Counted from the stretch's first letter, positions 31,425 to 42,779 are shown. The stretch: DNA of 64,000 nucleotides from an uncultured Cryobacterium sp. (GCA_964651535.1 CAZYYE010000001.1:273547-337546); one strand, 5' to 3'. Notes: generated by a model not told the origin, from the sequence alone. Numbers and translations are program-made.

Positions 31425-31496
<72 letters not shown>

Positions 31497-31531
31497 CGGC
31501 CATCCGGTAGTTTTTGTCCGCCGGATGCCGT

Positions 31532-31605
31532 GGCTGGGTAGCTCAGTTGGTGAGAGCGCACGACTCATAATCGTGAGGTCGCGGGTTCGAATCCCGCCCC
31601 AGCTA
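31532..31605 (+). tRNA. tRNA-Met (CAT), elongator type; integration target
   Basis: Acceptor GGCTGGG/CCCAGCT, anticodon loop CTCATAA, T-arm GCGGG-TTCGAAT-CCCGC. Its 3' 42 nt are duplicated at 36157. Confidence 0.9.
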
Positions 31606-31607
31606 CA
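31564..31607 (+). repeat. attL: 44-bp direct repeat (anticodon loop to 3' end of tRNA-Met)
   Basis: CTCATAATCGTGAGGTCGCGGGTTCGAATCCCGCCCCAGCTACA is identical to 36157-36200. Confidence 0.85.
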
Positions 31608-32607
31608 GATCAGAAAGCCCGAGAATCCGGAGTTTTGCCGCCTTCTCACCCCCCTCGAAAGTGACCTCACGATTCGAGGGGTTCATCTTTTCTCGGATGG
31701 CCAACGCCGCATCGGTTGACGACGAGCGCGTATAAAGCTCAGTTGTCGAGATGGAGGCATGGCCGGCTACCCGCTGAATGTTCTGGGGCGAGTTCCCGGC
31801 ACGAGCCAGCCGCGTAAGGAACGTGTGCCGCAGATCATGAAAGCGCAAAGCTCTACCGTCCGCGAATGTGGCGATTCCGTCGCGTATCTTCTCCCACTTC
31901 ACAGCGCGGGAAAGGTTGCCACTATCGAACGGGCCGCCACGCACGCCAGTAAAGACGTGCTCGAAACCCGCTTGCTGCGCCAGCTCGAGCCACGGCATGA
32001 GTTCATTGAGAATTGGCACGCTGCGGATGCGGCCGCTTTTGGTGGCGCGAATCTCGAGCTTGCCGTGACCGTTGGGCGAGAACGTGCGCCGCACCGTTAT
32101 GAGGCCCTGCCCTGCATCCACATCCTCCCAACGAAGGCCGACCAGCTCACCGAGCCGCAGACCAGTGAAGGCAAGCCCGGCAAGAGCACGCTGCCCGAAC
32201 GGGTGAAAGGCGGTGAGGGTAAGCATGCGAGCGACCTGTACATCACTGAGGGCGCGGCTAGCAGGGTCAGCATCGTGATTCTTGCCACGCGACCGAGGGA
32301 GCGAACGGCAGGGGTTCGAACCGATGCGGCCATCCATCACCGCAAGCTCGAGCAGACGCGAAAGCAGGGCGAGAGCATCCTGTTTGGTCGATGCGCTCCC
32401 ATCCCATGCAGCACGAGCGCGGGAAATGACGAGGGCCGTTAGCCCAGAAAGGGGCAGGCTCCCCAGTGAAGGTCGCACACGTAGCCGCCAGGCACGCTCA
32501 TAGGCCGCGACAGCATTAGAGACCAAGCCTTCCTCGACCAGCGCGTGATTCTCGTCGTAGAAATCGGCAAGCGTCACCCCCGCACGATCGTCGGTCATTA
32601 GTCTCAT
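31603..32607 (-). CDS. Tyrosine-type site-specific integrase
   Basis: Catalytic residues in context: LRLGELVGLRWEDV (Arg), HDLRHTFLTRLA (His-x-x-Arg), GHASISTTELYTR (His, Tyr). Its stop codon lies inside attL. Confidence 0.9.
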   Translation of the reverse strand: MRLMTDDRAGVTLADFYDENHALVEEGLVSNAVAAYERAWRLRVRPSLGSLPLSGLTALVISRARAAWDGSASTKQDALALLSRLLELAVMDGRIGSNPCRSLPRSRGKNHDADPASRALSDVQVARMLTLTAFHPFGQRALAGLAFTGLRLGELVGLRWEDVDAGQGLITVRRTFSPNGHGKLEIRATKSGRIRSVPILNELMPWLELAQQAGFEHVFTGVRGGPFDSGNLSRAVKWEKIRDGIATFADGRALRFHDLRHTFLTRLARAGNSPQNIQRVAGHASISTTELYTRSSSTDAALAIREKMNPSNREVTFEGGEKAAKLRILGLSDL

Positions 32608-32652
32608 AGTCCGAGACTAAAGGACTACACGAGTTAGTGCAACACTTTGCGA

Positions 32653-33045
32653 CTAGCCCTTTTCTTGGCGCTCCGCCATTCCCTTCACGAATGCGGCAAC
32701 ATCGACCTTTAGGCCAGGGAACTCGTAGATGTCGGGGTGCTCTCCAAAGACGCCTCGGAACTGAGAAACTCGTCGGTAAACGCTTGATCTGCTCATGCCG
32801 AGGTTCTTCTGCATCCCTTCAAAACCGCCCACCAGTCGCCACATCACCCAGAATCCAACTAGGTCGAACAATGTGGAGTTGACGTAGCCGCGCATGAGTG
32901 TTTTTAGGCCGGGGAAGGCCGAGAGAAGCGGCTCGTTGACGGACTTGTTCGCGGCGTAGTACGTGTCCCACGCTGATTCGAGGGCGCTCTTCGCCCGACC
33001 TTCACCCTCTGGTGATGGCATTCGATCCGCTCTAAAGTCCGCCAT
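32653..33045 (-). CDS. Hypothetical HTH protein (candidate element regulator or recombination directionality factor)
   Basis: 130 aa with a C-terminal HTH-like GMSRSSVYRRVSQFRGVFG. It sits between the effector and int. I do not recognise the family. Confidence 0.5.
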   Translation of the reverse strand: MADFRADRMPSPEGEGRAKSALESAWDTYYAANKSVNEPLLSAFPGLKTLMRGYVNSTLFDLVGFWVMWRLVGGFEGMQKNLGMSRSSVYRRVSQFRGVFGEHPDIYEFPGLKVDVAAFVKGMAERQEKG

Positions 33046-33168
33046 GACGCCTCATCTCGTAGTTCAACTATCTGAGACTACAAGACTAAGGCTTTGCGCC
33101 GTCATGACGCTACCTAAGCCAACTCTCCCGAAATCCTCTATACAAGATCAAGAGATCTCCCTGATCGC

Positions 33169-33678
33169 TCAGAGGAAACTGTCAATAACGACAGCCAGTG
33201 TGCACGCAAATGATGCCAAGGCGATCATCCAAAGGCCAAGCTGGATACCTCGATACTTCCGATCGACGATTCCGGAGATGATCTTTAGCTGATCGAATAC
33301 CCGAGCATCGATCCCCTTCGACGTGCGGATCAGGTTGGCCTCGAGCCGGTTGGCTGGCGTAGCTACGACATCTCCAAAGTAAGCGATGATCGCAGGTACC
33401 CGCTCGCCCCTGTATGCAGTGCGCGGGTACACGGAGTAAGCAAATGCGACGATTGCGCCAACGCCGCTGGCGCTACCTACCCACCAAAGCCATTGCACGC
33501 ACGCCATGAGATCGAATGGAGTCCAGTCACCGGCGACAATAGCGGCGACGATTGCGCCAAGCGCTACCCCCGCTGCAGCAAGCAACAGGGACGACTTACC
33601 GTCGGCTCGGGCAAGTTCCTCACGAGCCTCGCGCAGGATCGTCTCAGCAAGAACGATGTGACGTTTCGACTTGGACAT
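33169..33678 (-). CDS. Small three-TM protein resembling Pycsar TM effector (formerly DUF5706)
   Basis: 169 aa with an N-terminal helix ending in ELARADGKSSLLL that runs into TM1, plus two further hydrophobic helices. Its start overlaps the cyclase stop by 1 nt (TAATG). Confidence 0.6.
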   Translation of the reverse strand: MSKSKRHIVLAETILREAREELARADGKSSLLLAAAGVALGAIVAAIVAGDWTPFDLMACVQWLWWVGSASGVGAIVAFAYSVYPRTAYRGERVPAIIAYFGDVVATPANRLEANLIRTSKGIDARVFDQLKIISGIVDRKYRGIQLGLWMIALASFACTLAVVIDSFL

Positions 33679-34619
33679 TACTTGAGAAGTTCCTCAATCA
33701 GGGACAGATGCTCCGCCTTCCACTCGACGCGCGCTAAGTCTCGTCGCTTGCGCGCGTCTTGCTTCTCAACCGAACCAAAAGAAAGCAAATTTCGTTCACT
33801 ACGCACAGACTGTGGGATGTCGTCGCGCTTGGTCTTGCCGTCTAAGATTGCCTGGCAAAAGTCCTCACCGTGATTCACGCACCACTTGGTCTCAAGGGAC
33901 TTACCGTACATCTCGTCATCCGGGATCTTCTCAATGTCGTAGTCGTGCCACAAAAGGGTGGGCCCCGAGTTGCAGCCGCATGAGAATGCTATGTAGTCGT
34001 TGTCTTCGATCGCGTCCCAAACGCTGGCCGTAACCAGTAGCGCGTCAGGTTCAGTTTGCTGGGCTGCCTTTGCGGCATAGTTAACGGGGCGTCCGGCCCA
34101 CACGGGTTCTTGCAGTTCGAGGTGGCGAGGAAGCCCCACGCGTTTCACAAGCACCGGCCCGCTCGCAACGGCAACCTTGAAGCCGGTTTTAGGTGACTCG
34201 GTCCACTTGGCCAGGAGTTGGGTCGCGAAATCATCACTGAAAGAACGGGTAGTGATGGCAGCTGCCATCGCTCGCTCGTATCGACGGTCGCCCCAAAAGA
34301 GTGCGAATCCGCCGTCGCCCTGAATGTCGACGAAATCTGCATCGAAAGTCTCGAAAATTACGACGACTCCACCAACCCCGGCGTCATAGATGCTTGCGAC
34401 GCTGCGCGGATTCTTTCCCTTGGCGAGATTTGTAGATGATTTCAAATCGACCATCACAGCGACTACATCAGAAAGCCGATGCCACTCGTCGCCGATTTTG
34501 AGATTACCAATGTCGAAGTTTCCGTCCTTGCTGATGACCTTTGGCATCAACTCAAACTTCTTCTTTGTGCGAGCGGACAAGTTGTCCAATGTTTCAAACA
34601 GCGCGGTAGTCATGGCCAT
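33678..34619 (-). CDS. Class III nucleotide cyclase domain protein (Pycsar PycC-like) with C-terminal extension
   Basis: Motifs in canonical order: VAVMVDLKSST (metal Asp), DIQGDGGFALF (second Asp), VAVASGPVLVKRVG, VWAGRPVNYAAKAAQ, LLVTASVWD. The second ATG at 34613 has better SD spacing (GGAG-N6). Confidence 0.7.
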   Translation of the reverse strand: MAMTTALFETLDNLSARTKKKFELMPKVISKDGNFDIGNLKIGDEWHRLSDVVAVMVDLKSSTNLAKGKNPRSVASIYDAGVGGVVVIFETFDADFVDIQGDGGFALFWGDRRYERAMAAAITTRSFSDDFATQLLAKWTESPKTGFKVAVASGPVLVKRVGLPRHLELQEPVWAGRPVNYAAKAAQQTEPDALLVTASVWDAIEDNDYIAFSCGCNSGPTLLWHDYDIEKIPDDEMYGKSLETKWCVNHGEDFCQAILDGKTKRDDIPQSVRSERNLLSFGSVEKQDARKRRDLARVEWKAEHLSLIEELLK

Positions 34620-34897
34620 CTCCGTTCGGGTTCGGGTTGGGGGTACTGACCTTAGTCCTAGACATGCGGAATCGACGTAGCGACACGCCGAAACGAGGGT
34701 CTAAGTACTTCCAGCTGCCGCCCTTCGCGCTTTGCGCTCCGGTTGCCCTTGATCTGAGGGTGTGGCACCGCAATGGCCGGGTTGCTGGTCCGGAGTATGG
34801 ACGGGTGGTCGTGCGGCGCCTCGCGTTCGCCCCTTCGGGGCACCACGCGCAGCATCCGCACGACCGCCTAACCCTTGTGGCCGATCAGCGTCACCGG

Positions 34898-35032
34898 TCA
34901 GGCGCAGTACGCGCACAACTCACTACCCAGCGCATCCCGCACCCCGTTAGCCGGAGTTGGGTTACCGCACTTGTCACACGCGCGAAGGCCCATCATTGCG
35001 CACATCTCGCAATCTGGTTCAGCCATGTTCAT
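34898..35032 (-). CDS. 44-aa triple-CxxC (zinc-ribbon-like) miniprotein
   Basis: Hand translation: MNMAEPDCEMCAMMGLRACDKCGNPTPANGVRDALGSELCAYCA. It starts 16 nt after the rep stop and is below the track cutoff. Confidence 0.4.
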   Translation of the reverse strand: MNMAEPDCEMCAMMGLRACDKCGNPTPANGVRDALGSELCAYCA

Positions 35033-35047
35033 CACCCCCTTTCCCCA

Positions 35048-36130
35048 TCACGGCACCGCCGCCGAACAGGGAGCCAGCTCACGCCGCAACCGCACCGCGC
35101 GACCCTCCACCGCCCCCACCAGGTCAACGACCGGCACCGACGATTCGGCCCTTGCCGTGTCAACCCCTTGGGAAAGGAACCACTCCAGCCGCAGTCGGCG
35201 CTGCACCGTCCGAGTTAGCCCAGTGAACGACCAACCGGTGCGGTGCTTGGTGCGCCGCGATGCACTCACCACTTGCGAGCGTGACCCGTACCGGTCATGG
35301 ACACGGCTTCGGCAATCCACCAACGTGCAGTCCACCGAGCAGCGCATGGCCGCCGCCGCACGCTCGAGCGCGGCCAGGTGCGCCCACACCTGCGTGTGCA
35401 CCCTCTCCCCGGTCTGCACCACGTCCTTCATCACATAGTTCAGCGCCTTGGAGAGATACCAAATCGTTTTTGCCCCGTCACCGTCCGCACGGAACATGTC
35501 GCACCGGAATTGCGCGCCCCACTCCACGAATGTGCCGTCAATTTTCGAGATCGCCACCGCAGACCGTGCCGCCTCGCCCAACACCGTCGCAGCCGGTGCC
35601 TCGCCCCGAGCAATACGCACGAGGGCGTGAACATGCAGCACTCCACGGTCCTGCCATTCACGCACAATGAAGTACTCGGCAGAATCCCATCGGTCACGGA
35701 TGCGCCGTCGAGTGCGATCCCACAGCACACCCGCGTCACGGTTCCACGCAACCTGCCCCGCGTAGTCATACCGCGACGCATCCAGGGGAACACCACGCAG
35801 CCCCGCATCCGTCGTGCGGTGATGCTCACCACAGCCGCACCTGGCCGAGCTACCCGAGTCGGCACGCGGCACCCGATGCACCGCACCAAACGACGGAGCC
35901 GTCAACGTCAGCAGATAGAACTGGAACTGCGATACTGGGCCGTCGAAAACCCCCGACCGAGCAATCGCCGCCCAGTCACCCCGGTACAGCTCTGCGCAGG
36001 ACGCGCACGCACTCCGCACCCGCGAACCACATCGAACCCAGATACCGGTCTTAGTCTTGATTGGCCGAACACAGCCACGACTGAGAACCTCAGCTGCACC
36101 GTCTTCGAGTGGGTTCGTACTTGCTCGCAT
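35048..36130 (-). CDS. RepSA-like replication initiator protein (actinomycete integrative element type)
   Basis: 360 aa with CGSRVRSACASCAELYRGDW, FYLLTLTAPSFGAVH and VREWQDRGVLHVHALVR, as in pSAM2-family Rep proteins. Confidence 0.8.
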   Translation of the reverse strand: MRASTNPLEDGAAEVLSRGCVRPIKTKTGIWVRCGSRVRSACASCAELYRGDWAAIARSGVFDGPVSQFQFYLLTLTAPSFGAVHRVPRADSGSSARCGCGEHHRTTDAGLRGVPLDASRYDYAGQVAWNRDAGVLWDRTRRRIRDRWDSAEYFIVREWQDRGVLHVHALVRIARGEAPAATVLGEAARSAVAISKIDGTFVEWGAQFRCDMFRADGDGAKTIWYLSKALNYVMKDVVQTGERVHTQVWAHLAALERAAAAMRCSVDCTLVDCRSRVHDRYGSRSQVVSASRRTKHRTGWSFTGLTRTVQRRLRLEWFLSQGVDTARAESSVPVVDLVGAVEGRAVRLRRELAPCSAAVP

Positions 36131-36156
36131 AACGAGCGACTACTACGGACACACGC

Positions 36157-36200
36157 CTCATAATCGTGAGGTCGCGGGTTCGAATCCCGCCCCAGCTACA
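36157..36200 (+). repeat. attR: second copy of the 44-bp tRNA-Met 3' segment
   Basis: Identical to 31564-31607. It is preceded by element DNA and is not a full tRNA, since there is no 5' half. Confidence 0.85.
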
Positions 36201-36270
36201 CATCGCGGATACGGCCTGCGTGCAGCCGACATTCAGACAACTCACACGAACTCTGACTACTTTGGCGCGC

Positions 36271-37179
36271 ATGGCACGTTCGTCGAGTGCACAGGCTCAG
36301 ACCATCGTCGTGGGCGGCAAACGCATCCACGTAACGAGCCTCGACAAGGTGATGTATCCGTCCACCGGCACCACCAAAGCCGACATTCTCGACTACTACA
36401 CGCGCATCGCCGAGGTGTTCATCCGGTACGCGCACGACCGGCCGGCAACGCGCAAGCGCTGGGTCGACGGGGTGGGGACAGCGCAGAAGCCAGGTGAATT
36501 CTTCTTCCAGAAAGACCTCGGCGAATCCGCGCCGGCATGGGTACAGCGTCGAACCATCAAACACAAAGAGCGCACGAACGAATATCCGCTTGTGAACAAC
36601 GCCGCCACTCTGGCGTGGCTCGCGCAGATCTCCGCTCTCGAAATCCACGTGCCGCAATGGCAGTTCAATCGCCGAGGTGATCCACGAAAACCTGACCGGC
36701 TCGTCCTGGATCTCGACCCCGGCGACGGGATCGGGCTTCCCGAATGTGCGGAAGTCGCCCGAGCCGCGGCGGCGATTCTCGACGACAAGAAAATGGCATG
36801 CTTTCCGGTGACGAGCGGCAGCAAAGGCATCCACCTCTACGCGCCCCTCGACGGAAAGCGCACGTCAGACGAGGTATCCGACATCGCGAATGAACTGGCG
36901 CGAGCGCTCGTCGCTGATCTGCCTGATCTGGTCGTCAGCGACATGAAACGAGCGCTGCGACCCGGCAAAGTCTTCGTGGACTGGAGCCAGAACAGGGCAT
37001 CCAAGACGACCATCGCCCCCTATTCCCTCCGAGGGAGGCTGCGACCCACCGTGGCAGCGCCGCGAACGTGGGCGGAATTGGAGTCGCCGACGCTCGCCCA
37101 ACTCGAATTCGGTGAGGTGCTCGAACGGGCAGAGGGCGGGAACGACCCTCTCGCGTCACTGATTCGAACGTCACCGTGA
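36271..37179 (+). CDS. Stand-alone LigD-type primase-polymerase (NHEJ PolDom-like)
   Basis: 302 aa with KVMYPSTGTTKADILDYY, LVLDLDP and SGSKGIHLY, typical of the LigD polymerase domain. The track ORF start at 36166 runs through attR and was rejected. Confidence 0.85.
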   Translation: MARSSSAQAQTIVVGGKRIHVTSLDKVMYPSTGTTKADILDYYTRIAEVFIRYAHDRPATRKRWVDGVGTAQKPGEFFFQKDLGESAPAWVQRRTIKHKERTNEYPLVNNAATLAWLAQISALEIHVPQWQFNRRGDPRKPDRLVLDLDPGDGIGLPECAEVARAAAAILDDKKMACFPVTSGSKGIHLYAPLDGKRTSDEVSDIANELARALVADLPDLVVSDMKRALRPGKVFVDWSQNRASKTTIAPYSLRGRLRPTVAAPRTWAELESPTLAQLEFGEVLERAEGGNDPLASLIRTSP

Positions 37180-37210
37180 AACCCGTCATCGGCGAAAGAA
37201 AGGAACTGCG

Positions 37211-37477
37211 ATGCCAGGCAAGAAGAATCCGCAACTGAAAGATCCGGAGCTCTACGGGGAGTTGCGCGATGAAGGTGCGTCCAAAGAGAAAGCCGCTCGA
37301 GTCTCCAACGCGATCGCGAAACGCGGAGCGTCCGCGGTGGGGCGAAAGGGCGGGAAATCCGGATCCTACGACGACTGGACGGTCAGCGAACTCCGCGACC
37401 GTGCGAAAGAACTGGGGCTTGAAGGGTACTCGGGGAAAAGAAAGTCGGAACTCATCGACCTGCTGCGTCACCACTGA
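37211..37477 (+). CDS. Rho termination factor N-terminal (Rho_N) domain small protein
   Basis: 88 aa with a C-terminal TVSELRDRAKELGLEGYSGKRKSELIDLL, a SAP/Rho_N-like motif. Confidence 0.75.
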   Translation: MPGKKNPQLKDPELYGELRDEGASKEKAARVSNAIAKRGASAVGRKGGKSGSYDDWTVSELRDRAKELGLEGYSGKRKSELIDLLRHH

Positions 37478-37531
37478 ACAGTCCCGAACTCTGGCCGAGA
37501 GGCTCTATCGTGAAAGAAAGGATGGCCCGAC

Positions 37532-38002
37532 ATGGCAACGGATCCGCTGCTGCCGAGTGAAGTTTCACCTGTGGTCGGCGGCTTCGACCGCTTCGCGGAA
37601 GGTGCGTCGAAAGTCGCCAGCCGCGCGTGGTTCTTCGCGTTTTGCGTGCTGCTCGTCGTGGTGTGGGCGCCGTCGATCATCTTTCTCAAAGACATCGACA
37701 CGTGGCAGCTGATCATCAACACCCTCACGACGATCGTGACATTCCTCATGGTCGCTTTGTTGCAGAACAGCCAGACGCGCGCGGACCTGGCGCTTCAGCA
37801 CAAACTCAACGCCATCGCCGAAATGCTGGCGCATATCGCCGAGGACCGGGGTCTGAGCGACGACGCCACGGAGCTTCGCGATGCGGTCGGACTCGAGACG
37901 CGTGAGAGCACGAGCGACAACAGCACCGACGAGAATGCGTCGGCACAGAAGAAGCCGGCACAGAAGAAGTCGACACAGAAGAGCTCCCGAACCAGGAAAT
38001 AG
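37532..38002 (+). CDS. Low-affinity iron permease family protein
   Basis: Two TMs with WQLIINTLTTIVTFLMVALLQNSQ and LALQHKLNAI, as in the low-affinity Fe permease family. Confidence 0.75.
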   Translation: MATDPLLPSEVSPVVGGFDRFAEGASKVASRAWFFAFCVLLVVVWAPSIIFLKDIDTWQLIINTLTTIVTFLMVALLQNSQTRADLALQHKLNAIAEMLAHIAEDRGLSDDATELRDAVGLETRESTSDNSTDENASAQKKPAQKKSTQKSSRTRK

Positions 38003-38162
38003 GGTCCAGCGCACGCGTATAGTTTTCTGCGAACGTGACACGATCCGAGGAGGTGAGCCCGATGCACGCACTGTCCACTTTGGGCGCTCCTTCGAGATCA
38101 CGATCACGCGACTGACGTAGCCGTCGCGGGGGCGCCACACGCACTCCCAGAAAGCCACGGCT

Positions 38163-39077
38163 ATGAAACCTTCTCTTCAACGCGACACCGAGGCGCCCTC
38201 CGGCGACGCCTCGGGATTCACAAACCGCACAGCGCTCGTCCTGGGTGGTGGCGGATCCGCAGGCAATGCCTGGTTGATCGGCGTCATCGCCGGCCTGCAT
38301 GGCGCGGGGCTGGATGTCACCAATGCCGACCTCATCATCGGCACGTCGGCCGGCGCAACAGCGGCGGCCCAGATCACCGGCGCCAGTCCCACCGAACTGT
38401 TCGCGAGCATTCTTACGGCACCGACACTGCAGCGAGTTGCGGCCGGACCCATTCCGAACCTCCAAAGCGAGGGCCTGGAGAGGGTCACCCGAATCAGCGC
38501 AGCTTCCGTGGATGCGGCCGATATGCGCCGCAGGATGGGCGCGGCCGCCATCGAACTGGATGCCGACTCCCATGGTTCCGACCGCTGGCGCGCCATCGTG
38601 GCCGCTCGGCTGCCGAATCCTGCATGGCCGCAGCAGAGGGTGGTCATGACCGCCGTCGATGCGGGTACGGGAGAGGACGCCCTGCTGGACCGCGACAGCG
38701 GTGTGGATCTCATCGACGCGGTAGCCGCGAGTACATCCGGCGGGCCGGCCTACCGCATCGGCGAAAGGAAGTACATCGATGGCGGGTACCGCCGCAACGA
38801 GAACGCCGATCTGGCCGCGGGCTACGAGCGCGTGCTTGTGCTGTCGCCGCTCGGCGGGAGGACACTGCACCCGCTGGAGTGGCGCATGCAGTTGTCCGCG
38901 CAGGTCGAAGACCTGGAGGCGAGCGGAAGCACGGTCGAGGCGATCCTGCCGGACCGCAACTCTCTCGAGGCGTTCGGCGACAACATGATGAACCTGTCGA
39001 CGCGCCCGGCCGCAGCCCAGTCGGGGCACGACCAGGGAACGGCGCTCGCGGAACAGCTCGCAGAATTCTGGCGCTGA
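38163..39077 (+). CDS. Patatin-like phospholipase
   Basis: Oxyanion GGGGSAG, nucleophile elbow GTSAG and catalytic DGG (IDGGYR). Confidence 0.85.
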   Translation: MKPSLQRDTEAPSGDASGFTNRTALVLGGGGSAGNAWLIGVIAGLHGAGLDVTNADLIIGTSAGATAAAQITGASPTELFASILTAPTLQRVAAGPIPNLQSEGLERVTRISAASVDAADMRRRMGAAAIELDADSHGSDRWRAIVAARLPNPAWPQQRVVMTAVDAGTGEDALLDRDSGVDLIDAVAASTSGGPAYRIGERKYIDGGYRRNENADLAAGYERVLVLSPLGGRTLHPLEWRMQLSAQVEDLEASGSTVEAILPDRNSLEAFGDNMMNLSTRPAAAQSGHDQGTALAEQLAEFWR

Positions 39078-39084
39078 GCGAGGG

Positions 39085-39423
39085 TCAACTTTGCGGATCG
39101 AAACCGAACTCCCGCAGCTCTTGCGAGCAACGGCAGGCGACCGCAATCTTTCTGGCCCACTCTTCGGCATCCGCCCGGGTTGGCAGCTCAAGGACGGTGA
39201 ACCCGCCATTGAGCTGTGAGCCGGGATAGATCTCCGTGGATACCGACCCGTCCGCGGAAACCATTACCGGGTCGACGCTCTCGTCGATGCCGCCGCCGAA
39301 CACGTAAACGCCTGCCGCCTTCGCCTCCTCGATGACGGCGTGGGATTCCGCGACGACAACAGGGAACTCATCGTCGGTGAGCACCATGGCTTCGCTCGGG
39401 AAAGAAATGAGATACTTCGTCAT
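39085..39423 (-). CDS. YciI-like family protein
   Basis: 112 aa from MTKYLISFP, about the size of a YciI-like protein with a similar pattern. The track start at 39495 is an extension. Confidence 0.65.
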   Translation of the reverse strand: MTKYLISFPSEAMVLTDDEFPVVVAESHAVIEEAKAAGVYVFGGGIDESVDPVMVSADGSVSTEIYPGSQLNGGFTVLELPTRADAEEWARKIAVACRCSQELREFGFDPQS

Positions 39424-39519
39424 TGCTTCATGGTGCTCCGTGGTCGTCCTGGGTGGCAAGTGCAGGATCTCGCGCCGACGTGGAGCGTCCTCCATCGTTC
39501 AGCGCGAACTCCCCTGCCG

Positions 39520-40476
39520 TCAGCGGCGGTTGTCGCGAATCGTCTTGAGCCAACCGTCGATGATGTCCCACAACCCGAATCCGATGATCCCGGCGCCCAC
39601 GATGGTGGCGAGTATGCGGAGGGTCTCCGCGGTCACTCCGTTGTCCGTAAACACGACGGCGATGAATTCGGGGTTCAGCAGTTGCCCGGCGACGAGCAGA
39701 GCCATCGCCGGAACCGCGAACGCGATGGCGAGCGCAGTATTCAAGGCCGCGAACATCGCGCTCCAGCGCCCTGTCCGGTAGACGGAAATCACGAGGGCGG
39801 TCTTTGCCGCCATGATCGCGAGCAGCCCGACGATCCACCACGGCCACAATTCGGGGGCGAGGACGGGAAGCCACTCGGAGTCGATGTACGCCAAGCCGCG
39901 GATCCGGTCCCAGAGAAGCACGCCGACGCCAGCGGCGAGAAACACGAGGCTCGCAATCAGGTCGGACAGGCCAGCGCCCCTGTGCCGAATCTCTGGAAGC
40001 ATCTCGACACCCCATGCGGTCGGCACCGTTGCGCCGCTGGTGCGCTCCAGCACGGCAAACACGAGAGTCACCCAGAACGCAAGGTGAACGACGACGGCCA
40101 ATCCCACCGAGATCGCGCTTCCGATGATTCCGCCGACGGGCGCCCCGGAGAGCACCATGCTGAGAACCACACCTCCCATGGACACGGCGGGAACGATCGC
40201 GAGGAGCACTTTCAGCAGGCGCCACCACGTGAGGTAGAAACGCGGCCCGATGAGGTGCAGCGGCCGATCAGCGTATCCCGCGGCGAGAACGCCGGGGTCG
40301 CCGAGGTCCGTCAGCACGTCCCGCTCGGAGATTTCGGGAGTCACCCCAGTCGCGGCGCGCGCTTCAATGGCATCGGCGATGCTGACCTCGAGTTCGGTCC
40401 GCACATCGTCGCGGGATGCGGGCGGGAGGCTGCGAATCACAGCGTCGATGTATCGTTCGGTGAGTGTGGCGGTCAT
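39520..40476 (-). CDS. Membrane protein, PadR-associated (permease-prefix-like N terminus)
   Basis: 318 aa from MTATLTERYIDAVIRSLP, the typical N terminus of proteins encoded downstream of padR, followed by about 6 TMs. Confidence 0.65.
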   Translation of the reverse strand: MTATLTERYIDAVIRSLPPASRDDVRTELEVSIADAIEARAATGVTPEISERDVLTDLGDPGVLAAGYADRPLHLIGPRFYLTWWRLLKVLLAIVPAVSMGGVVLSMVLSGAPVGGIIGSAISVGLAVVVHLAFWVTLVFAVLERTSGATVPTAWGVEMLPEIRHRGAGLSDLIASLVFLAAGVGVLLWDRIRGLAYIDSEWLPVLAPELWPWWIVGLLAIMAAKTALVISVYRTGRWSAMFAALNTALAIAFAVPAMALLVAGQLLNPEFIAVVFTDNGVTAETLRILATIVGAGIIGFGLWDIIDGWLKTIRDNRR

Positions 40477-40477
40477 A

Positions 40478-40816
40478 TCAGTGCTCCTCCTCTGTGAGCG
40501 AGGCAATCGCGGCGGTGAGCGTGAGCCATTCTCGGGTGAGAGTGTCGGCGAGCTGGATGCCGGAGGCCGAGGTGCGGTAGAACTTGCGGGGACGTGCTTG
40601 CTCCGTATTCCACTCACTGGTCAGGAAACCCTGCTTTTCCAGCCGGCGGAGGAGCGGATACAACGTATTGGCGTCGGTAGCGAATCCCGATTTTTCGAGC
40701 TCTTCGAGCAGGCCATAGCCGTAACCGGGAGCGCGCAGCAGTTGGAGGCACGCCAGCACCATCGTGCCGCGGCGCAACTCCTGCAGGTGCGTATCCAGCA
40801 GCTCGTTCTCGCTCAT
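40478..40816 (-). CDS. PadR family transcriptional regulator
   Basis: GYGLLEELEKSG ... LYPLLRRLEKQGFL winged-helix signature. I prefer ATG 40816; GTG 40840 is possible. Confidence 0.85.
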   Translation of the reverse strand: MSENELLDTHLQELRRGTMVLACLQLLRAPGYGYGLLEELEKSGFATDANTLYPLLRRLEKQGFLTSEWNTEQARPRKFYRTSASGIQLADTLTREWLTLTAAIASLTEEEH

Positions 40817-40979
40817 GTCAAGCACATTACTGTGTGTCACACACTATTGTCAATATCCAGACGCGGGTTCGCTCGCAAGGGTGGCTATGATTCACAACGA
40901 ATCCGGTTTCCGGTTTCGAGTCGGCAATGATCGCGTGAAGTGAAGGCGTGTGTCGGACCTCGTTCGCTTGGAGAACTGC

Positions 40980-41166
40980 ATGGGGAAACTTGTCTACGGC
41001 GGGCAATCCGCGGAGATAGAGCTGGATCGACCGGTCCATTCCCCTGTATTTCACCTTCTACGGCAGCAAAATCCCGACCATAAACTCGGTATGGCTGGAA
41101 ATGCTCAACGACTCCGCGAACAGCGCCCCAGGCCTTGTCCTGATGTCCGAGCCTGAGGTCGAGTGA
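40980..41166 (+). pseudogene. Decayed paralogue of the 98-aa gene at 41169-41465 (internal deletion plus +1 frameshift)
   Basis: Frame 1 gives MGKLVYGGQSAEIELDR, compared with MGYLLYGRPAEEIEIEDR in the intact gene. From 41038 the +1 frame gives IPLYFTFYGSKIPTINSVWLEMLNDSANSAPGLVLMSEPEVE, compared with IPLHFKFHESKQPELDRVWLEALMKTANSVDGLRLIPEPE. Confidence 0.55.
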
Positions 41167-41168
41167 TC

Positions 41169-41465
41169 CTACTCGGGCTCGGGAATGAGCCTCAAACCGT
41201 CCACGCTGTTCGCCGTTTTCATGAGAGCCTCAAGCCAGACTCGGTCGAGCTCCGGCTGTTTCGATTCATGAAATTTGAAGTGCAGAGGAATCGCCGGATG
41301 GAGCCAGACGGTTGAGCGGCCTTCTTCCCCGTCCTCGTGCTGGAACGAGAAGGGGAACGGCTCCCCCCGGCGCAGCTTCGTCAGGATCACAATTTTGACG
41401 TGCGCGAGAACTCGGTCCTCAATCTCGATTTCTTCGGCGGGCCGGCCGTAAAGGAGATATCCCAT
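41169..41465 (-). CDS. Conserved hypothetical small protein
   Basis: 98 aa, MGYLLYGRPAEEIEIEDRVLAHVKIVILTKLRRGEPFPFSF. It resembles a conserved actinobacterial hypothetical family that I cannot name with confidence. Confidence 0.6.
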   Translation of the reverse strand: MGYLLYGRPAEEIEIEDRVLAHVKIVILTKLRRGEPFPFSFQHEDGEEGRSTVWLHPAIPLHFKFHESKQPELDRVWLEALMKTANSVDGLRLIPEPE

Positions 41466-41473
41466 GAAGTCAC

Positions 41474-41719
41474 CTAGGGCTCGTCGAGCCCCAAATGGCT
41501 GCCCTCCGTCGTCGCGGTTTTGGCGTGCAGGACGTGATCTTTCCCATTTGCTGTGTTTAGGCCAATTTGCACTTCGATTGCGGCAGGTCGGCCTGTCGGG
41601 TTCAGGGTCACAATTGCGGACATTCCGCTACTGGCCAACGTGGTAGCAAATTGCTCCAGAGCGTCGGCAACATCGTCCTCCAAAACGACTGTTCCGCCTG
41701 CGTGGCTGATTTCCTTCAT
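41474..41719 (-). CDS. Hypothetical protein
   Basis: 81-aa ORF lying 8 nt upstream of the 98-aa gene, probably in the same operon. I do not recognise the family. Confidence 0.45.
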   Translation of the reverse strand: MKEISHAGGTVVLEDDVADALEQFATTLASSGMSAIVTLNPTGRPAAIEVQIGLNTANGKDHVLHAKTATTEGSHLGLDEP

Positions 41720-41903
41720 GATTCCATGCTGTTTGGTGGGTTTAACTTCGTCAACCCCCTTGCGGCGAGCCGCGTGCGGTGTCCGGATTCTTTATCAGCT
41801 TCTGTGTGGGTTGGCAAGGCCCTTGATCCACCCCGCACGGGCCAGCACATAATGTGGCCAGGGTCGAGTTGGTCGATCTCAGAGCGAAAGGTAGGACCGG
41901 GAA

Positions 41904-42068
41904 ATGAGTTCACTTTTTGTCATTCTGGCGATTATCGCCATCATCCTGCTGTTTGTCGGTGGATTCGTCAAAGCCGTCAACTTCCTGTTGTGGGTGGGCA
42001 TCATCCTTTTGATCGTCGCCGTCATCGGATGGCTCTTTCGATTCATCACCGGGCGTCGATCGGTGTAG
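41904..42068 (+). CDS. 54-aa two-TM miniprotein (Lmo0937-like)
   Basis: Hand translation: MSSLFVILAIIAIILLFVGGFVKAVNFLLWVGIILLIVAVIGWLFRFITGRRSV. It is below the track cutoff. Confidence 0.5.
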   Translation: MSSLFVILAIIAIILLFVGGFVKAVNFLLWVGIILLIVAVIGWLFRFITGRRSV

Positions 42069-42160
42069 CTCGCTGCAAAGCGGTCCAGCCCGCGTCCTCT
42101 CCGGTCTGGACCGCAATCGCGCTGCGTGCTTCTGGTGGAGCGGCGGAAGGGGTATTGGAG

Positions 42161-42379
42161 ATGGACAGGAACCGTCCAGCCAATGTGGCTGCGCCGACAA
42201 ACGAACGCGATTGGGAAGTGCGCGGCGGAAATTGGGATCGCGTTGGCGGAGGACACCTCATTGGCTACATCGCCGAGGTCGGGGGCGTTTACGAAGTCGA
42301 AAAACTGACGGGGGTGAGGGTGCACGAATACTGCGCCACCTTCAAAGAAGCGATGGAGCGTTTCGAAGAAGAGGGGTGA
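42161..42379 (+). CDS. Hypothetical 72-aa protein
   Basis: This is the tail of track ORF 41567..42379, starting at MDRNRPAN. The rest of that ORF crosses other genes. Confidence 0.4.
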   Translation: MDRNRPANVAAPTNERDWEVRGGNWDRVGGGHLIGYIAEVGGVYEVEKLTGVRVHEYCATFKEAMERFEEEG

Positions 42380-42384
42380 GTTTG

Positions 42385-42573
42385 ATGGTCAGTGCTGCGG
42401 TCATTTGGGCAGGGCTGCTCGTCGCCAGTACGGCAGGGGGACTGATTTTCGCCCATGTGGGCTCGCACTCACTGCGACTGACGATGGCGACGGGCGGTGT
42501 ACTCGCGTGCATCATGGTTTCGTCGATGGCGACGATCCTGCTGGTCACGAGCGGCGCCCTCGGAGTGGGCTGA
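42385..42573 (+). CDS. Hypothetical 62-aa two-TM protein
   Basis: MVSAAVIWAGLLVASTAGGLIFAHVGSHSLRLTMATGGVLACIMVSSMATILLVTSGALGVG. It follows the previous ORF closely. Confidence 0.35.
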   Translation: MVSAAVIWAGLLVASTAGGLIFAHVGSHSLRLTMATGGVLACIMVSSMATILLVTSGALGVG

Positions 42574-42779
42574 TCTCGGTCGCCCGAACTGCGCTCTTGG
42601 GGCGCTCTACGAGCGGACGTGTCAGTGGCCTTAGACTCCAGAAGCCGCACGAGGGCCCGGTTGTTCGACATAGGCTGAACGCGATTGCCGCATTGCCCGC
42701 CGATTGCGCTGGCGGCGAGGGCGAAGTGTGATGTGGCTCCCGAACGAGACGATGCGGCGGAAATTGCGAAAGGCACCCA

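Follow-up and report, generated by a model that had tools for sequence, protein, structure and literature searches.

Integrative and conjugative elements of actinomycetes (AICEs) are recognised by a site-specific recombinase and bounding att direct repeats, usually at a tRNA 3' end, by a replication protein (RepSA, RepAM or Prim-Pol), by an FtsK/SpoIIIE translocase (Tra/TraB), and by a regulator such as Kor (of the GntR family), Pra or the NUDIX protein Pif (Ghinet 2011; rule of ICEfinder quoted in PMC10201445). Their sizes are 9-24 kb, with a mean of 17 kb (PMC10201445). It is noted that a published AICE search was anchored on traB (PMC9513070) and that the ICEfinder rule for AICEs requires a translocation protein (PMC10201445), so that such searches, by their stated criteria, would miss an element having no tra gene. 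In Frankia and Streptomyces, elements without tra have been described as remnants (PMC3218068, PMC9513070), or as possible mobilisable elements (PMC3218068). Here we analyse a stretch of 64,000 nucleotides from an uncultured Cryobacterium sp. (GCA_964651535.1 CAZYYE010000001.1:273547-337546), called the window below, where positions 31564-36200 are a site-specific integrative element of 4,593 bp, inserted at the 3' end of tRNA-Met. The host is an uncultured member of the Microbacteriaceae, with its ribosomal protein L11 placed in a 90% cluster together with Curtobacterium and Microbacterium. The element is an AICE-derived, tra-less, replicating integrative element and belongs to a widespread family, the members of which, of 3-7 kb, resemble AICEs without the transfer gene. 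The family is apparently undescribed, with no description of it found in the literature searched. A single element of this kind is unsurprising to a specialist; a compact family with fixed borders and a hypervariable defence slot is the useful finding.

Like the AICEs, the element has a tyrosine integrase that acts on a tRNA 3' end and leaves direct repeats, an initiator of the RepSA family with features of the pC194 type (HUH, Tyr, CTTGAT), and the gene order of rep, then a small gene for a helix-turn-helix (HTH) protein, then int, to be compared with repSA-xis-int. Unlike them, it lacks Tra/FtsK as well as Spd, Kor (GntR), Pra and NUDIX (Pif) functions, it is 4.6 kb instead of 9-24 kb, its Rep is about 100 aa shorter and falls outside the RepSA equivalog, int is adjoined by a gene for a 130-aa HTH protein of no curated family and not by xis, the integrase is Xer-like without an arm-binding domain, and a dedicated cargo slot holds one defence system. 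A second comparison is with the integrative mobilisable elements (IMEs) and the 'minimal hitchers' (Ares-Arroyo 2026, bioRxiv 10.64898/2026.01.13.699239), which likewise have their own integration/excision module, no transfer machinery, a small size, adaptive or defence cargo and presumed dependence on a helper. The presence in this element of its own excision and integration module without a complete conjugation apparatus is one of the features by which an IME is defined. Another is a cis site (oriT or clt), or else a relaxase, through which the transfer machinery of a helper is used, and the conserved CTTGAT box described below may be such a site. The difference is that IMEs and iOriTs use a relaxase and a type IV secretion system (T4SS) via oriT, whereas the likely helper here would be a single-protein FtsK-type translocase of double-stranded DNA, and that the present element retains its own replication initiator.

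The repeat at tRNA-Met and the empty site

In an earlier reading of this DNA (the original prediction), an element at tRNA-Met was taken to be bounded by a 44-bp perfect repeat that starts in the anticodon loop and stops 2 nt after the discriminator. Both points hold. The exact block 31564-31607 is recovered at 36157-36200, with a spacing of 4,593 bp, and the occurrence of an exact 44-mer twice within 8 kb is far beyond chance. The repeat search gives a longer direct repeat of 53 nt (31559-31611 and 36152-36204) with mismatches at positions 31563 and 31608 only, and these two, which flank the core, fit a crossover inside the 44 bp. The repeat begins 2 nt ahead of the CAT anticodon (31566-31568), inside the anticodon loop, and its left copy ends 2 nt beyond the discriminator of tRNA-Met. 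A tRNA-Thr gene (31425-31497) lies just before tRNA-Met. The left junction, attL, consists of the left side of attB and the right side of attP, and attR of the reverse.

The look-up of the flank with an exact 88-aa protein (37211-37477) gave 10 contigs. Contig L001 is 100% identical to window positions 27211-47477 and has the occupied site. The element is present in the samples SRR5690703 and ERZ869909. Contig L002 (Logan SRR17651513) is 99.9% identical to window positions 36152-42574, that is, over about 6.4 kb of flank, and there tRNA-Thr is followed by the complete tRNA-Met and then at once by CACATCGCGGATACGGCC, which is the window from 36199 onward, giving an empty attB. Contigs L005, L006 and L007 are also empty, as on the left of their core they have the tRNA-side variant, with A at the equivalent of 31563, and on the right they pass into the right flank. 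Four others (L003, L004, L008 and L009) start 30-31 nt inside the core, as is expected of a k=31 graph break where the core has two different left sides. Occupied and unoccupied attB sites are thus polymorphic between populations with near-identical flanks. The empty tRNA-Met site that had been predicted is therefore found in metagenome contigs (L002, L005, L006 and L007), and the repeat-bounded presence/absence polymorphism, which had been named as what a mobile element should show, exists between populations whose flanks are 99.9% identical. With the integrase domain PF00589, the 44-bp repeat and the empty site, the recombinase and att sites of an AICE at a tRNA 3' end are all present.

Genes, candidate origins and operator-like repeats

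Between the repeats six genes are supported, all on the minus strand (Table 1), and the long plus-strand open reading frames (ORFs) there are antisense to these six. The number and strand of the genes are as had been claimed, with the gene for a 45-aa protein, Cys45, being the sixth; a 59-aa ORF at 34594-34773 that had been considered for that place matches no family in four libraries and is rejected. The claim that the integrase abuts the intact tRNA and that a RepSA-type initiator sits at the far end is also right. The GC content is 52-58% over 32400-34800, which covers the cargo and ORF130, versus 62-67% in rep, int and the flanks. The best NCBIfam matches of Int are Xer-type recombinases, the HDLRHTF motif and the C-terminal Tyr are present, and the int gene, at its stop codon, runs 5 nt into the att core. 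With the core-binding domain beginning near residue 30 of a protein of 334 aa, there is no room for an arm-binding domain of the lambda type.

Table 1. Features of the element in the window, and cargo of related elements (loci prefixed L)
Feature	Position or locus	Strand	Evidence or remark
tRNA-Met(CAT), intact, integration target	31532-31606	+	ARAGORN; Rfam RF00005 gives 31532-31605, 76.5 bits
attL, left 44-bp att core, 3' part of tRNA-Met	31564-31607	.	exact repeat
Int, tyrosine integrase, Xer-like, 334 aa	31603-32607	-	PF00589 2.9e-25; phrog_1 integrase 3e-47
Operator-like TAGTC/GACTA repeats	32599-32655	-	palindrome TAGTCTCGGACTATGAGACTA over int start codon, and a site overlapping ORF130 stop
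ORF130, all-alpha HTH protein, 130 aa	32653-33045	-	conserved beside int; no curated family
Upstream operator-like site	33050-33090	-	TAGTCTTGTAGTC, 11 nt, GAACTAC; immediately ahead of ORF130 start
28-nt box CTTGATCTTGTATAGAGGATTTCGGGAG, candidate double-strand origin	33125-33152	-	conserved; holds CTTGAT
PycTM, Pycsar transmembrane effector, 169 aa	33169-33678	-	PF18967 40.1 bits vs cut-off 27.2; PADLOC PycTM 6e-15
PycC, Pycsar pyrimidine cyclase, 313 aa	33678-34619	-	PADLOC PDLC02369 (PycC) 6e-87
GC-rich long hairpin, about 60 nt	34807-34865	-	downstream of Cys45; RNAalifold, 9 relatives: 24 pairs, 5 with compensatory changes
Cys45, zinc-ribbon-like microprotein, 45 aa	34898-35035	-	three CxxC pairs; directly downstream of rep
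Rep, RepSA-family HUH rolling-circle initiator, 360 aa	35048-36130	-	PF20199 120.7 bits vs cut-off 34; PF23343 HUH domain
attR, right 44-bp att core, partial tRNA-Met 3' half	36157-36200	.	exact repeat; 36201 onward joins intact tRNA-Met in empty-site contigs
Cargo: OLD-type ATPase-TOPRIM	L032, L023		
Cargo: GmrSD	L042, L029, L072		
Cargo: AIPR	L013		
Cargo: TIR	L028		
Cargo: TIR-TM	L015		
Cargo: HEC-01A + HEC-01B	L040		
Cargo: AAA_21 ATPase	L022		
Cargo: DndB-like	L034		
Cargo: HEPN RiboL-PSP	L029		
Cargo: NOV_C	L037		
Cargo: FRG / PDC-S15	L011		
Cargo: EcoRI-type methylase + Mrr	L072		
Cargo: type IIG restriction-modification	L081		
Cargo: unmatched proteins, 159-516 aa	L036:11379-12635; L037:1806-3002; L038:11066-12088; L012:11466-12473; L053:8857-10407; L016:12471-13418; L034:12618-13097		

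Among the six proteins, Pfam, PADLOC, NCBIfam and phrog give no FtsK/SpoIIIE domain (PF01580) or any ATPase, and no GntR/Kor, Pra, NUDIX (Pif) or excisionase domain; the same search detected PF01580 in two larger relatives (L081 and L047, see below). In the same proteins no match to a MOB family and no coupling protein are found with Pfam and NCBIfam, and no packaging-related domain with Pfam and phrog. The translocase of the AICEs is thus lacking, as the original prediction had it, and the place of Kor, Pra or Pif is taken by an HTH protein that belongs to no curated family. The accompanying claim, that there is no excisionase and no regulator of the Kor/Pra type, stands for those families, but not in the sense that the element has no regulator, because ORF130 is a probable one.

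The replication protein that an AICE should have is supplied by Rep, the start codon of which is 26 nt from the att core. Rep reaches 86 of the 700 bits that are required by the RepSA equivalog NF041486, with residues 30-181 alone being aligned, so that Rep, as judged from its sequence, is a distinct short subfamily of the RepSA Pfam family and not a RepSA equivalog. It has the HUH motif and the catalytic Tyr motifs of the pC194 superfamily, namely H166-V-H168, Y225-LSK and Y232-VMK, with H166-x-H168, Y225 and Y232 as well as four N-terminal cysteines being invariant in an alignment of 16 homologues. There are 480 homologues of about 355 aa, and the named sources among the 120 listed are genera of the Microbacteriaceae or unclassified metagenome-assembled genomes (MAGs). 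A PDB sequence search with Rep gave nothing significant, and the PLSDB plasmids gave distant matches only, of the Streptomyces type with identity of 37% or less. As a side observation, the gene calls of NCBI and ENA give Rep as a protein of 197 aa (L001:7838-8431), without the conserved N-terminal 163 aa that hold the cysteine cluster, and this truncation in the public annotation could conceal the family from Rep-based screens. It is also observed that elements of the tRNA-Met type have a short inverted repeat (GCTCG, TTATG, CGAGC; window 36125-36160, minus strand) with the rep start codon in its loop, and that in the window a TAGTC half-site falls within the 26 nt that separate the core from rep. 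These features hint at control of rep translation or transcription.

Cys45 matches no database family. Its pattern, MA.(P/A)DC..C...G.R.CD.CG...GRELC.YC, is kept in 22 of the 59 family elements described below (42-60 aa), and for this reason we take it as a real gene. Downstream of it, the long hairpin is retained in the centroid fold and is conserved in the nearest relatives, being a candidate for the single-strand origin or for an operon terminator.

The candidate for the double-strand origin is the 28-nt box, which occurs once in the whole window, 17 nt past the PycTM stop. In 57 of the 59 elements the box is present in the form CTTGATCTTGTATAGAAGATTTCGGGAG, in a single copy and always on the rep strand. 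It begins with CTTGAT, which is the nick site of the pC194 family, of which pSAM2 is a member (te Poele et al. 2008, PMC2440964). It is the motif, the conservation and the orientation that together suggest an origin. The box was also considered as a promoter, and by eye it does not match -35 and -10 elements.

An alternative use of the same two features is that the HUH Rep doubles as a relaxase and the CTTGAT box is oriT, with an ICE or plasmid of the host that encodes a T4SS exporting the single-stranded DNA, in which case the locus would be an integrative mobilisable element. The relaxases of streptococcal IMEs are reportedly related to rolling-circle initiators, and there is one conserved box with a nick motif per element. 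Moreover, T4SS-type ICEs exist in Actinobacteria (PMC3429521). By contrast, the lack of a coupling protein and of a MOB-family match weighs against this alternative, the fuller relatives of the element use an FtsK-type translocase of double-stranded DNA, and no T4SS is known from these hosts, though the hosts were not searched for one. We thus regard a relaxase role of Rep as improbable.

A further alternative is a phage satellite, i.e., a minimalist, PICMI-like element, whose excision is induced by a helper phage, whose rolling-circle concatemers are packaged in the capsids of the helper, and whose cargo hits competing phages. The element has no transfer gene, as would be expected, and rolling-circle replication naturally gives multimers. 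In size and in gene set (int, an HTH regulator, an initiator and one defence system) it resembles PICMI and the defence hotspots of P4 satellites, which reportedly (PMC10803314, PMC9122126) have a minimal int/regulator/replication set, a small size, and a hypervariable locus with one anti-phage system per element. It differs from both in the host phylum and in the family of the replication protein, and neither its domains nor the relatives of Rep point to hijacking functions or a link to phages. Specifically, the element lacks genes for a capsid, a terminase small subunit, AlpA and a primase, and no relative of Rep occurs in 2.9 million IMG/VR contigs or in 50,697 phage genomes (INPHARED), which weighs against a satellite. 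In addition, packaging of a 4.6-kb unit would demand a many-fold concatemer, and the closest larger relatives have an FtsK/SpoIIIE conjugation gene and not phage genes. The evidence, therefore, leaves a satellite with a low probability.

Returning to the tra-less, AICE-derived element, we consider how it could be controlled. Copies of ORF130 that are 57-79% identical adjoin int in the relatives from genome collections, the gene being beside int in 37 of the 59 elements, and every one of its 120 homologues is from the present element family. ORF130 is hence a backbone gene and not cargo. It matches no curated family in Pfam, PADLOC, NCBIfam or phrog; the AlphaFold (AF2) model, with a pLDDT of 79, has five helices and a C-terminal HTH at about residues 75-100, and the Foldseek and Pfam matches are weak or below threshold but all to HTH families. 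ORF130 is probably a regulator, or possibly a recombination directionality factor, outside the Xis, Kor and Pra families. The elements without ORF130 carry a divergently transcribed gene of the XRE HTH type, of about 140 aa; the plus-strand ORFs that could be read there as an alternative translate to low-complexity junk, and the real gene is on the opposite strand.

Around ORF130 there are TAGTC/GACTA repeats, with the palindrome at the int start having the form TAGTCTCA, 4-6 nt, TGAGACTA. The repeats are kept in relatives of both the tRNA-Met and the tRNA-Phe type, and over 37 elements their density is 3.14 per 100 nt flanking ORF130 versus 0.088 per 100 nt elsewhere, i.e., about 36-fold higher. 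ORF130 is the obvious candidate for the protein that would bind these sites. The 10-mer CTTAGTCTTG had been considered as the operator before; its counts over the window equal those of chance, and it was replaced by the family-wide test of the TAGTC pentamer.

A family of compact elements with a variable cargo slot

With the Rep alignment as query, 40 genome loci and 79 metagenome loci were obtained, on which elements were delimited by mapping the window proteins, the tRNAs and the flanking repeats. This yielded 59 repeat-bounded elements of the Microbacteriaceae, a few of which are the same contig held in two collections. Isolates with a family member include Microbacterium sp. PA5, CJ88 and 2FI, and Parafrigoribacterium humi. 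The sizes of 57 of the 59 are 3.1-6.7 kb, with two outliers of 9.4 and 9.5 kb, and the exact repeats are mostly 40-51 bp (range 19-104 bp). The target is either tRNA-Met(CAT) beside tRNA-Thr or tRNA-Phe(GAA) beside tRNA-Asp and tRNA-Glu. Compared with the window Int, the integrases at tRNA-Met are 55-91% identical and those at tRNA-Phe 36-44%, the sole exception being L081 (tRNA-Phe, 58%). Thus the integrase lineage follows the target, the repeats are tied to the integrase, and the alternative that the second 44-mer comes from a tRNA pseudogene duplication having nothing to do with the integrase is excluded.

The order of the backbone, in the orientation of rep, is att, rep, (Cys45), the cargo slot, the 28-nt box, the regulator, int and att. 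Wherever residue 1 of Rep is covered by the match, 21-29 nt separate the core from the rep ATG that follows it; the stop codon of int, in the majority of elements, is no more than a few nt from the core. With such tight ends, int and rep would be about 70 nt apart in a circle, nearly all of it attP. At L085:700-5935 two different elements, the Ints of which are 46% identical, stand in tandem at one tRNA-Phe with a copy of the core between them, which is accretion at the att site by independent insertions. Besides, the MAG Salinibacterium ACE_ACT13 has two members with different cargo, L029 (ACT13_6) and L035 (ACT13_5), one at tRNA-Phe and one at tRNA-Met.

These data bear also on the proposal that the locus is an immobile remnant of a decayed AICE, which is retained for its useful cargo, with the repeat being the fossil of an old insertion. 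Tra-less elements have been given that name in Frankia and Streptomyces, as noted above, and no circular form was detected. If this proposal were true, it would be difficult to explain why populations with 99.9% identical flanks differ by presence and absence, why the 44-bp repeats are perfect and why the six genes are intact with the catalytic residues of Rep and Int conserved. It is also inconsistent with the recurrence of the same compact architecture in 59 elements of about a dozen genera at two tRNA sites, with the tandem insertion of different elements, and with the strong conservation of the non-coding box and operators. A remnant is therefore very improbable.

The two large outliers show what the family is related to. 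Both have an FtsK_SpoIIIE gene, at L081:7760-8635 (2.4e-12) and at L047:16646-17872 (5.8e-7), the protein of L081 being of 291 aa, which is presumably similar in size to TraSA of pSAM2. The Rep of L081 is 66% identical to that of the window and the 28-nt box is shared, and the Rep of L047 is more distant, at about 53%. The FtsK genes together with the shared Rep and box place the family within the diversity of the AICEs, so that the idea of a stripped-down relative of actinomycete ICEs, as put forward in the original prediction, is upheld, and the descent of the small elements from AICEs is supported by these comparisons.

The slot between rep and the box in the window holds what is, by its matches, a complete Pycsar pair, with PycC close to a uridylate cyclase; the defence-like cargo expected beforehand is thus identified. 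Both parts of a Pycsar system, the PycC cyclase and an effector gene next to it in the same operon, are present, with the TAA stop of PycC overlapping the ATG of PycTM (TAATG). Against PDB 8jsz, 'uridylate cyclase', PycC gives 3.4e-32, and in the alignment the VD..K.ST and GDG segments, which we take to hold the metal-binding Asp residues of class III cyclases, are identical. The architecture is the same as in described Pycsar systems, i.e., a two-gene PycC and PycTM operon; what differs is the context, a 4.6-kb replicating integrative element. Mapping of the window proteins onto the loci of the relatives gave no other family element with Pycsar.

Across the family the cargo is hypervariable, nearly unique per element and, by the families matched, mostly of the defence type. 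The 31 genome-derived elements have 83 ORFs in the slot, nearly all of them singletons. Besides the types in Table 1, DUF6414, DUF6941 and an SDH protease are found. Seven cargo proteins that were checked individually match nothing in Pfam or PADLOC, and from their position these unmatched proteins are candidates for unrecognised defence genes. The fixed borders, rep with the zinc-ribbon gene on one side and the 28-nt CTTGAT box on the other, give a handle for the discovery of defence genes, and it is through the same property of a slot that the P4/P2 hotspots proved useful for finding new anti-phage systems. For this tra-less family, surveys of actinobacterial mobile elements that are anchored on tra have a blind spot. 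In addition, rep, origin, regulator and int together make up a unit of 3 kb, which is close to the smallest self-replicating integrative element that could be studied, and which may serve as a genetic tool for the Microbacteriaceae.

Proposed life cycle and the neighbourhood

Based on the above, we propose a model of the life cycle, which as a whole we consider quite probable: a tra-less AICE-like integrative element with rolling-circle replication, control by ORF130, helper-dependent spread and a benefit to the host from Pycsar. The insertion itself is shown: Int recombined the 44-bp core of attP with the tRNA, by which the core was duplicated and the tRNA remained intact. In the model, Int would also excise the element as a circle of 4.59 kb, with the end of int, the attP core and the start of rep adjoining one another over about 70 nt in all. 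The predicted attP junction in the circle is ...ACGAGCGACTACTACGGACACACGC + CTCATAATCGTGAGGTCGCGGGTTCGAATCCCGCCCCAGCTACA + GATCAGAAAGCCCGAG..., and the predicted repaired attB is ...GAGAGCGCACGA + core + CATCGCGGATACGGCC.... Rep would nick the CTTGAT box and copy the circle by rolling-circle replication. ORF130, by binding to the TAGTC sites, would control its own gene and int (an orf130-int operon). Since no transfer gene is present, the spread from cell to cell would need a helper, the likeliest being a Tra of the FtsK type from a related AICE, for example L081, and this raises the question of whether the FtsK-type conjugation of actinomycetes, with its single protein, is itself parasitised. 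In the integrated state, cUMP or cCMP produced upon phage infection would activate the membrane effector, giving the host abortive-infection immunity, which would pay for the carriage of the element.

Several observations weigh against the model. No circular form is seen, with 0 of the 79 metagenome loci having terminal overlaps. A 1-kb MEGAHIT contig of a Salinibacterium MAG (L050:1-1027) does run from the int 3' end through the tRNA-Phe core to the rep 5' start, and as an attP junction it is ambiguous, because a tandem array is equally possible and such arrays are proven by L085. Another contig that had been considered as a circle (L051; Logan, 4,609 bp) is the interior of an element plus 2 x 30 nt of core, the expected k=31 unitig break at the repeat. 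No helper is identified within the 64 kb visible of this genome, and even for pSAM2 no clt-like site is known (PMC9513070). The fold of the box region is not significant (z = -1.2), so that the origin role rests on the motif and its conservation. A scan for sigma-70 promoters over the element gave 0 sites, and no promoter is assigned. Finally, ORF130 is without a significant structural or sequence relative (nothing at E<1 with Foldseek against PDB, and likewise in the PDB sequence search), and its role is therefore read from its position and the repeats.

A more speculative extension of the model, which we consider unlikely, is that rep is expressed after excision only, being read through attP in the circle, where it would be about 70 nt downstream of int, and that Rep also captures the cargo, the family then acting as a shuttle of defence genes in actinobacteria. 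If it were true, replication, and hence the dosage of the defence genes, would switch on with excision. The slot would abut the 5' side of CTTGAT because aberrant termination of rolling-circle replication by Rep captures cargo there, so that Rep would both replicate the element and capture genes, and the many cargo proteins without a Pfam or PADLOC match would be new anti-phage systems.

Finally, another presence/absence polymorphism is seen at a distance of 6 kb from the element. Contigs L002, L004 and L005 have a heliorhodopsin gene (PF18761) and an ORF of 122-142 aa in a stretch of about 1.5 kb (L002:6542-8040), and the window as well as L001 and L003 have 155 bp only at that place (42575-42729). 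Next to this heliorhodopsin indel, window positions 40600-42000 have a GC content of 55-58% and carry PadR, DUF7882 and several small ORFs.

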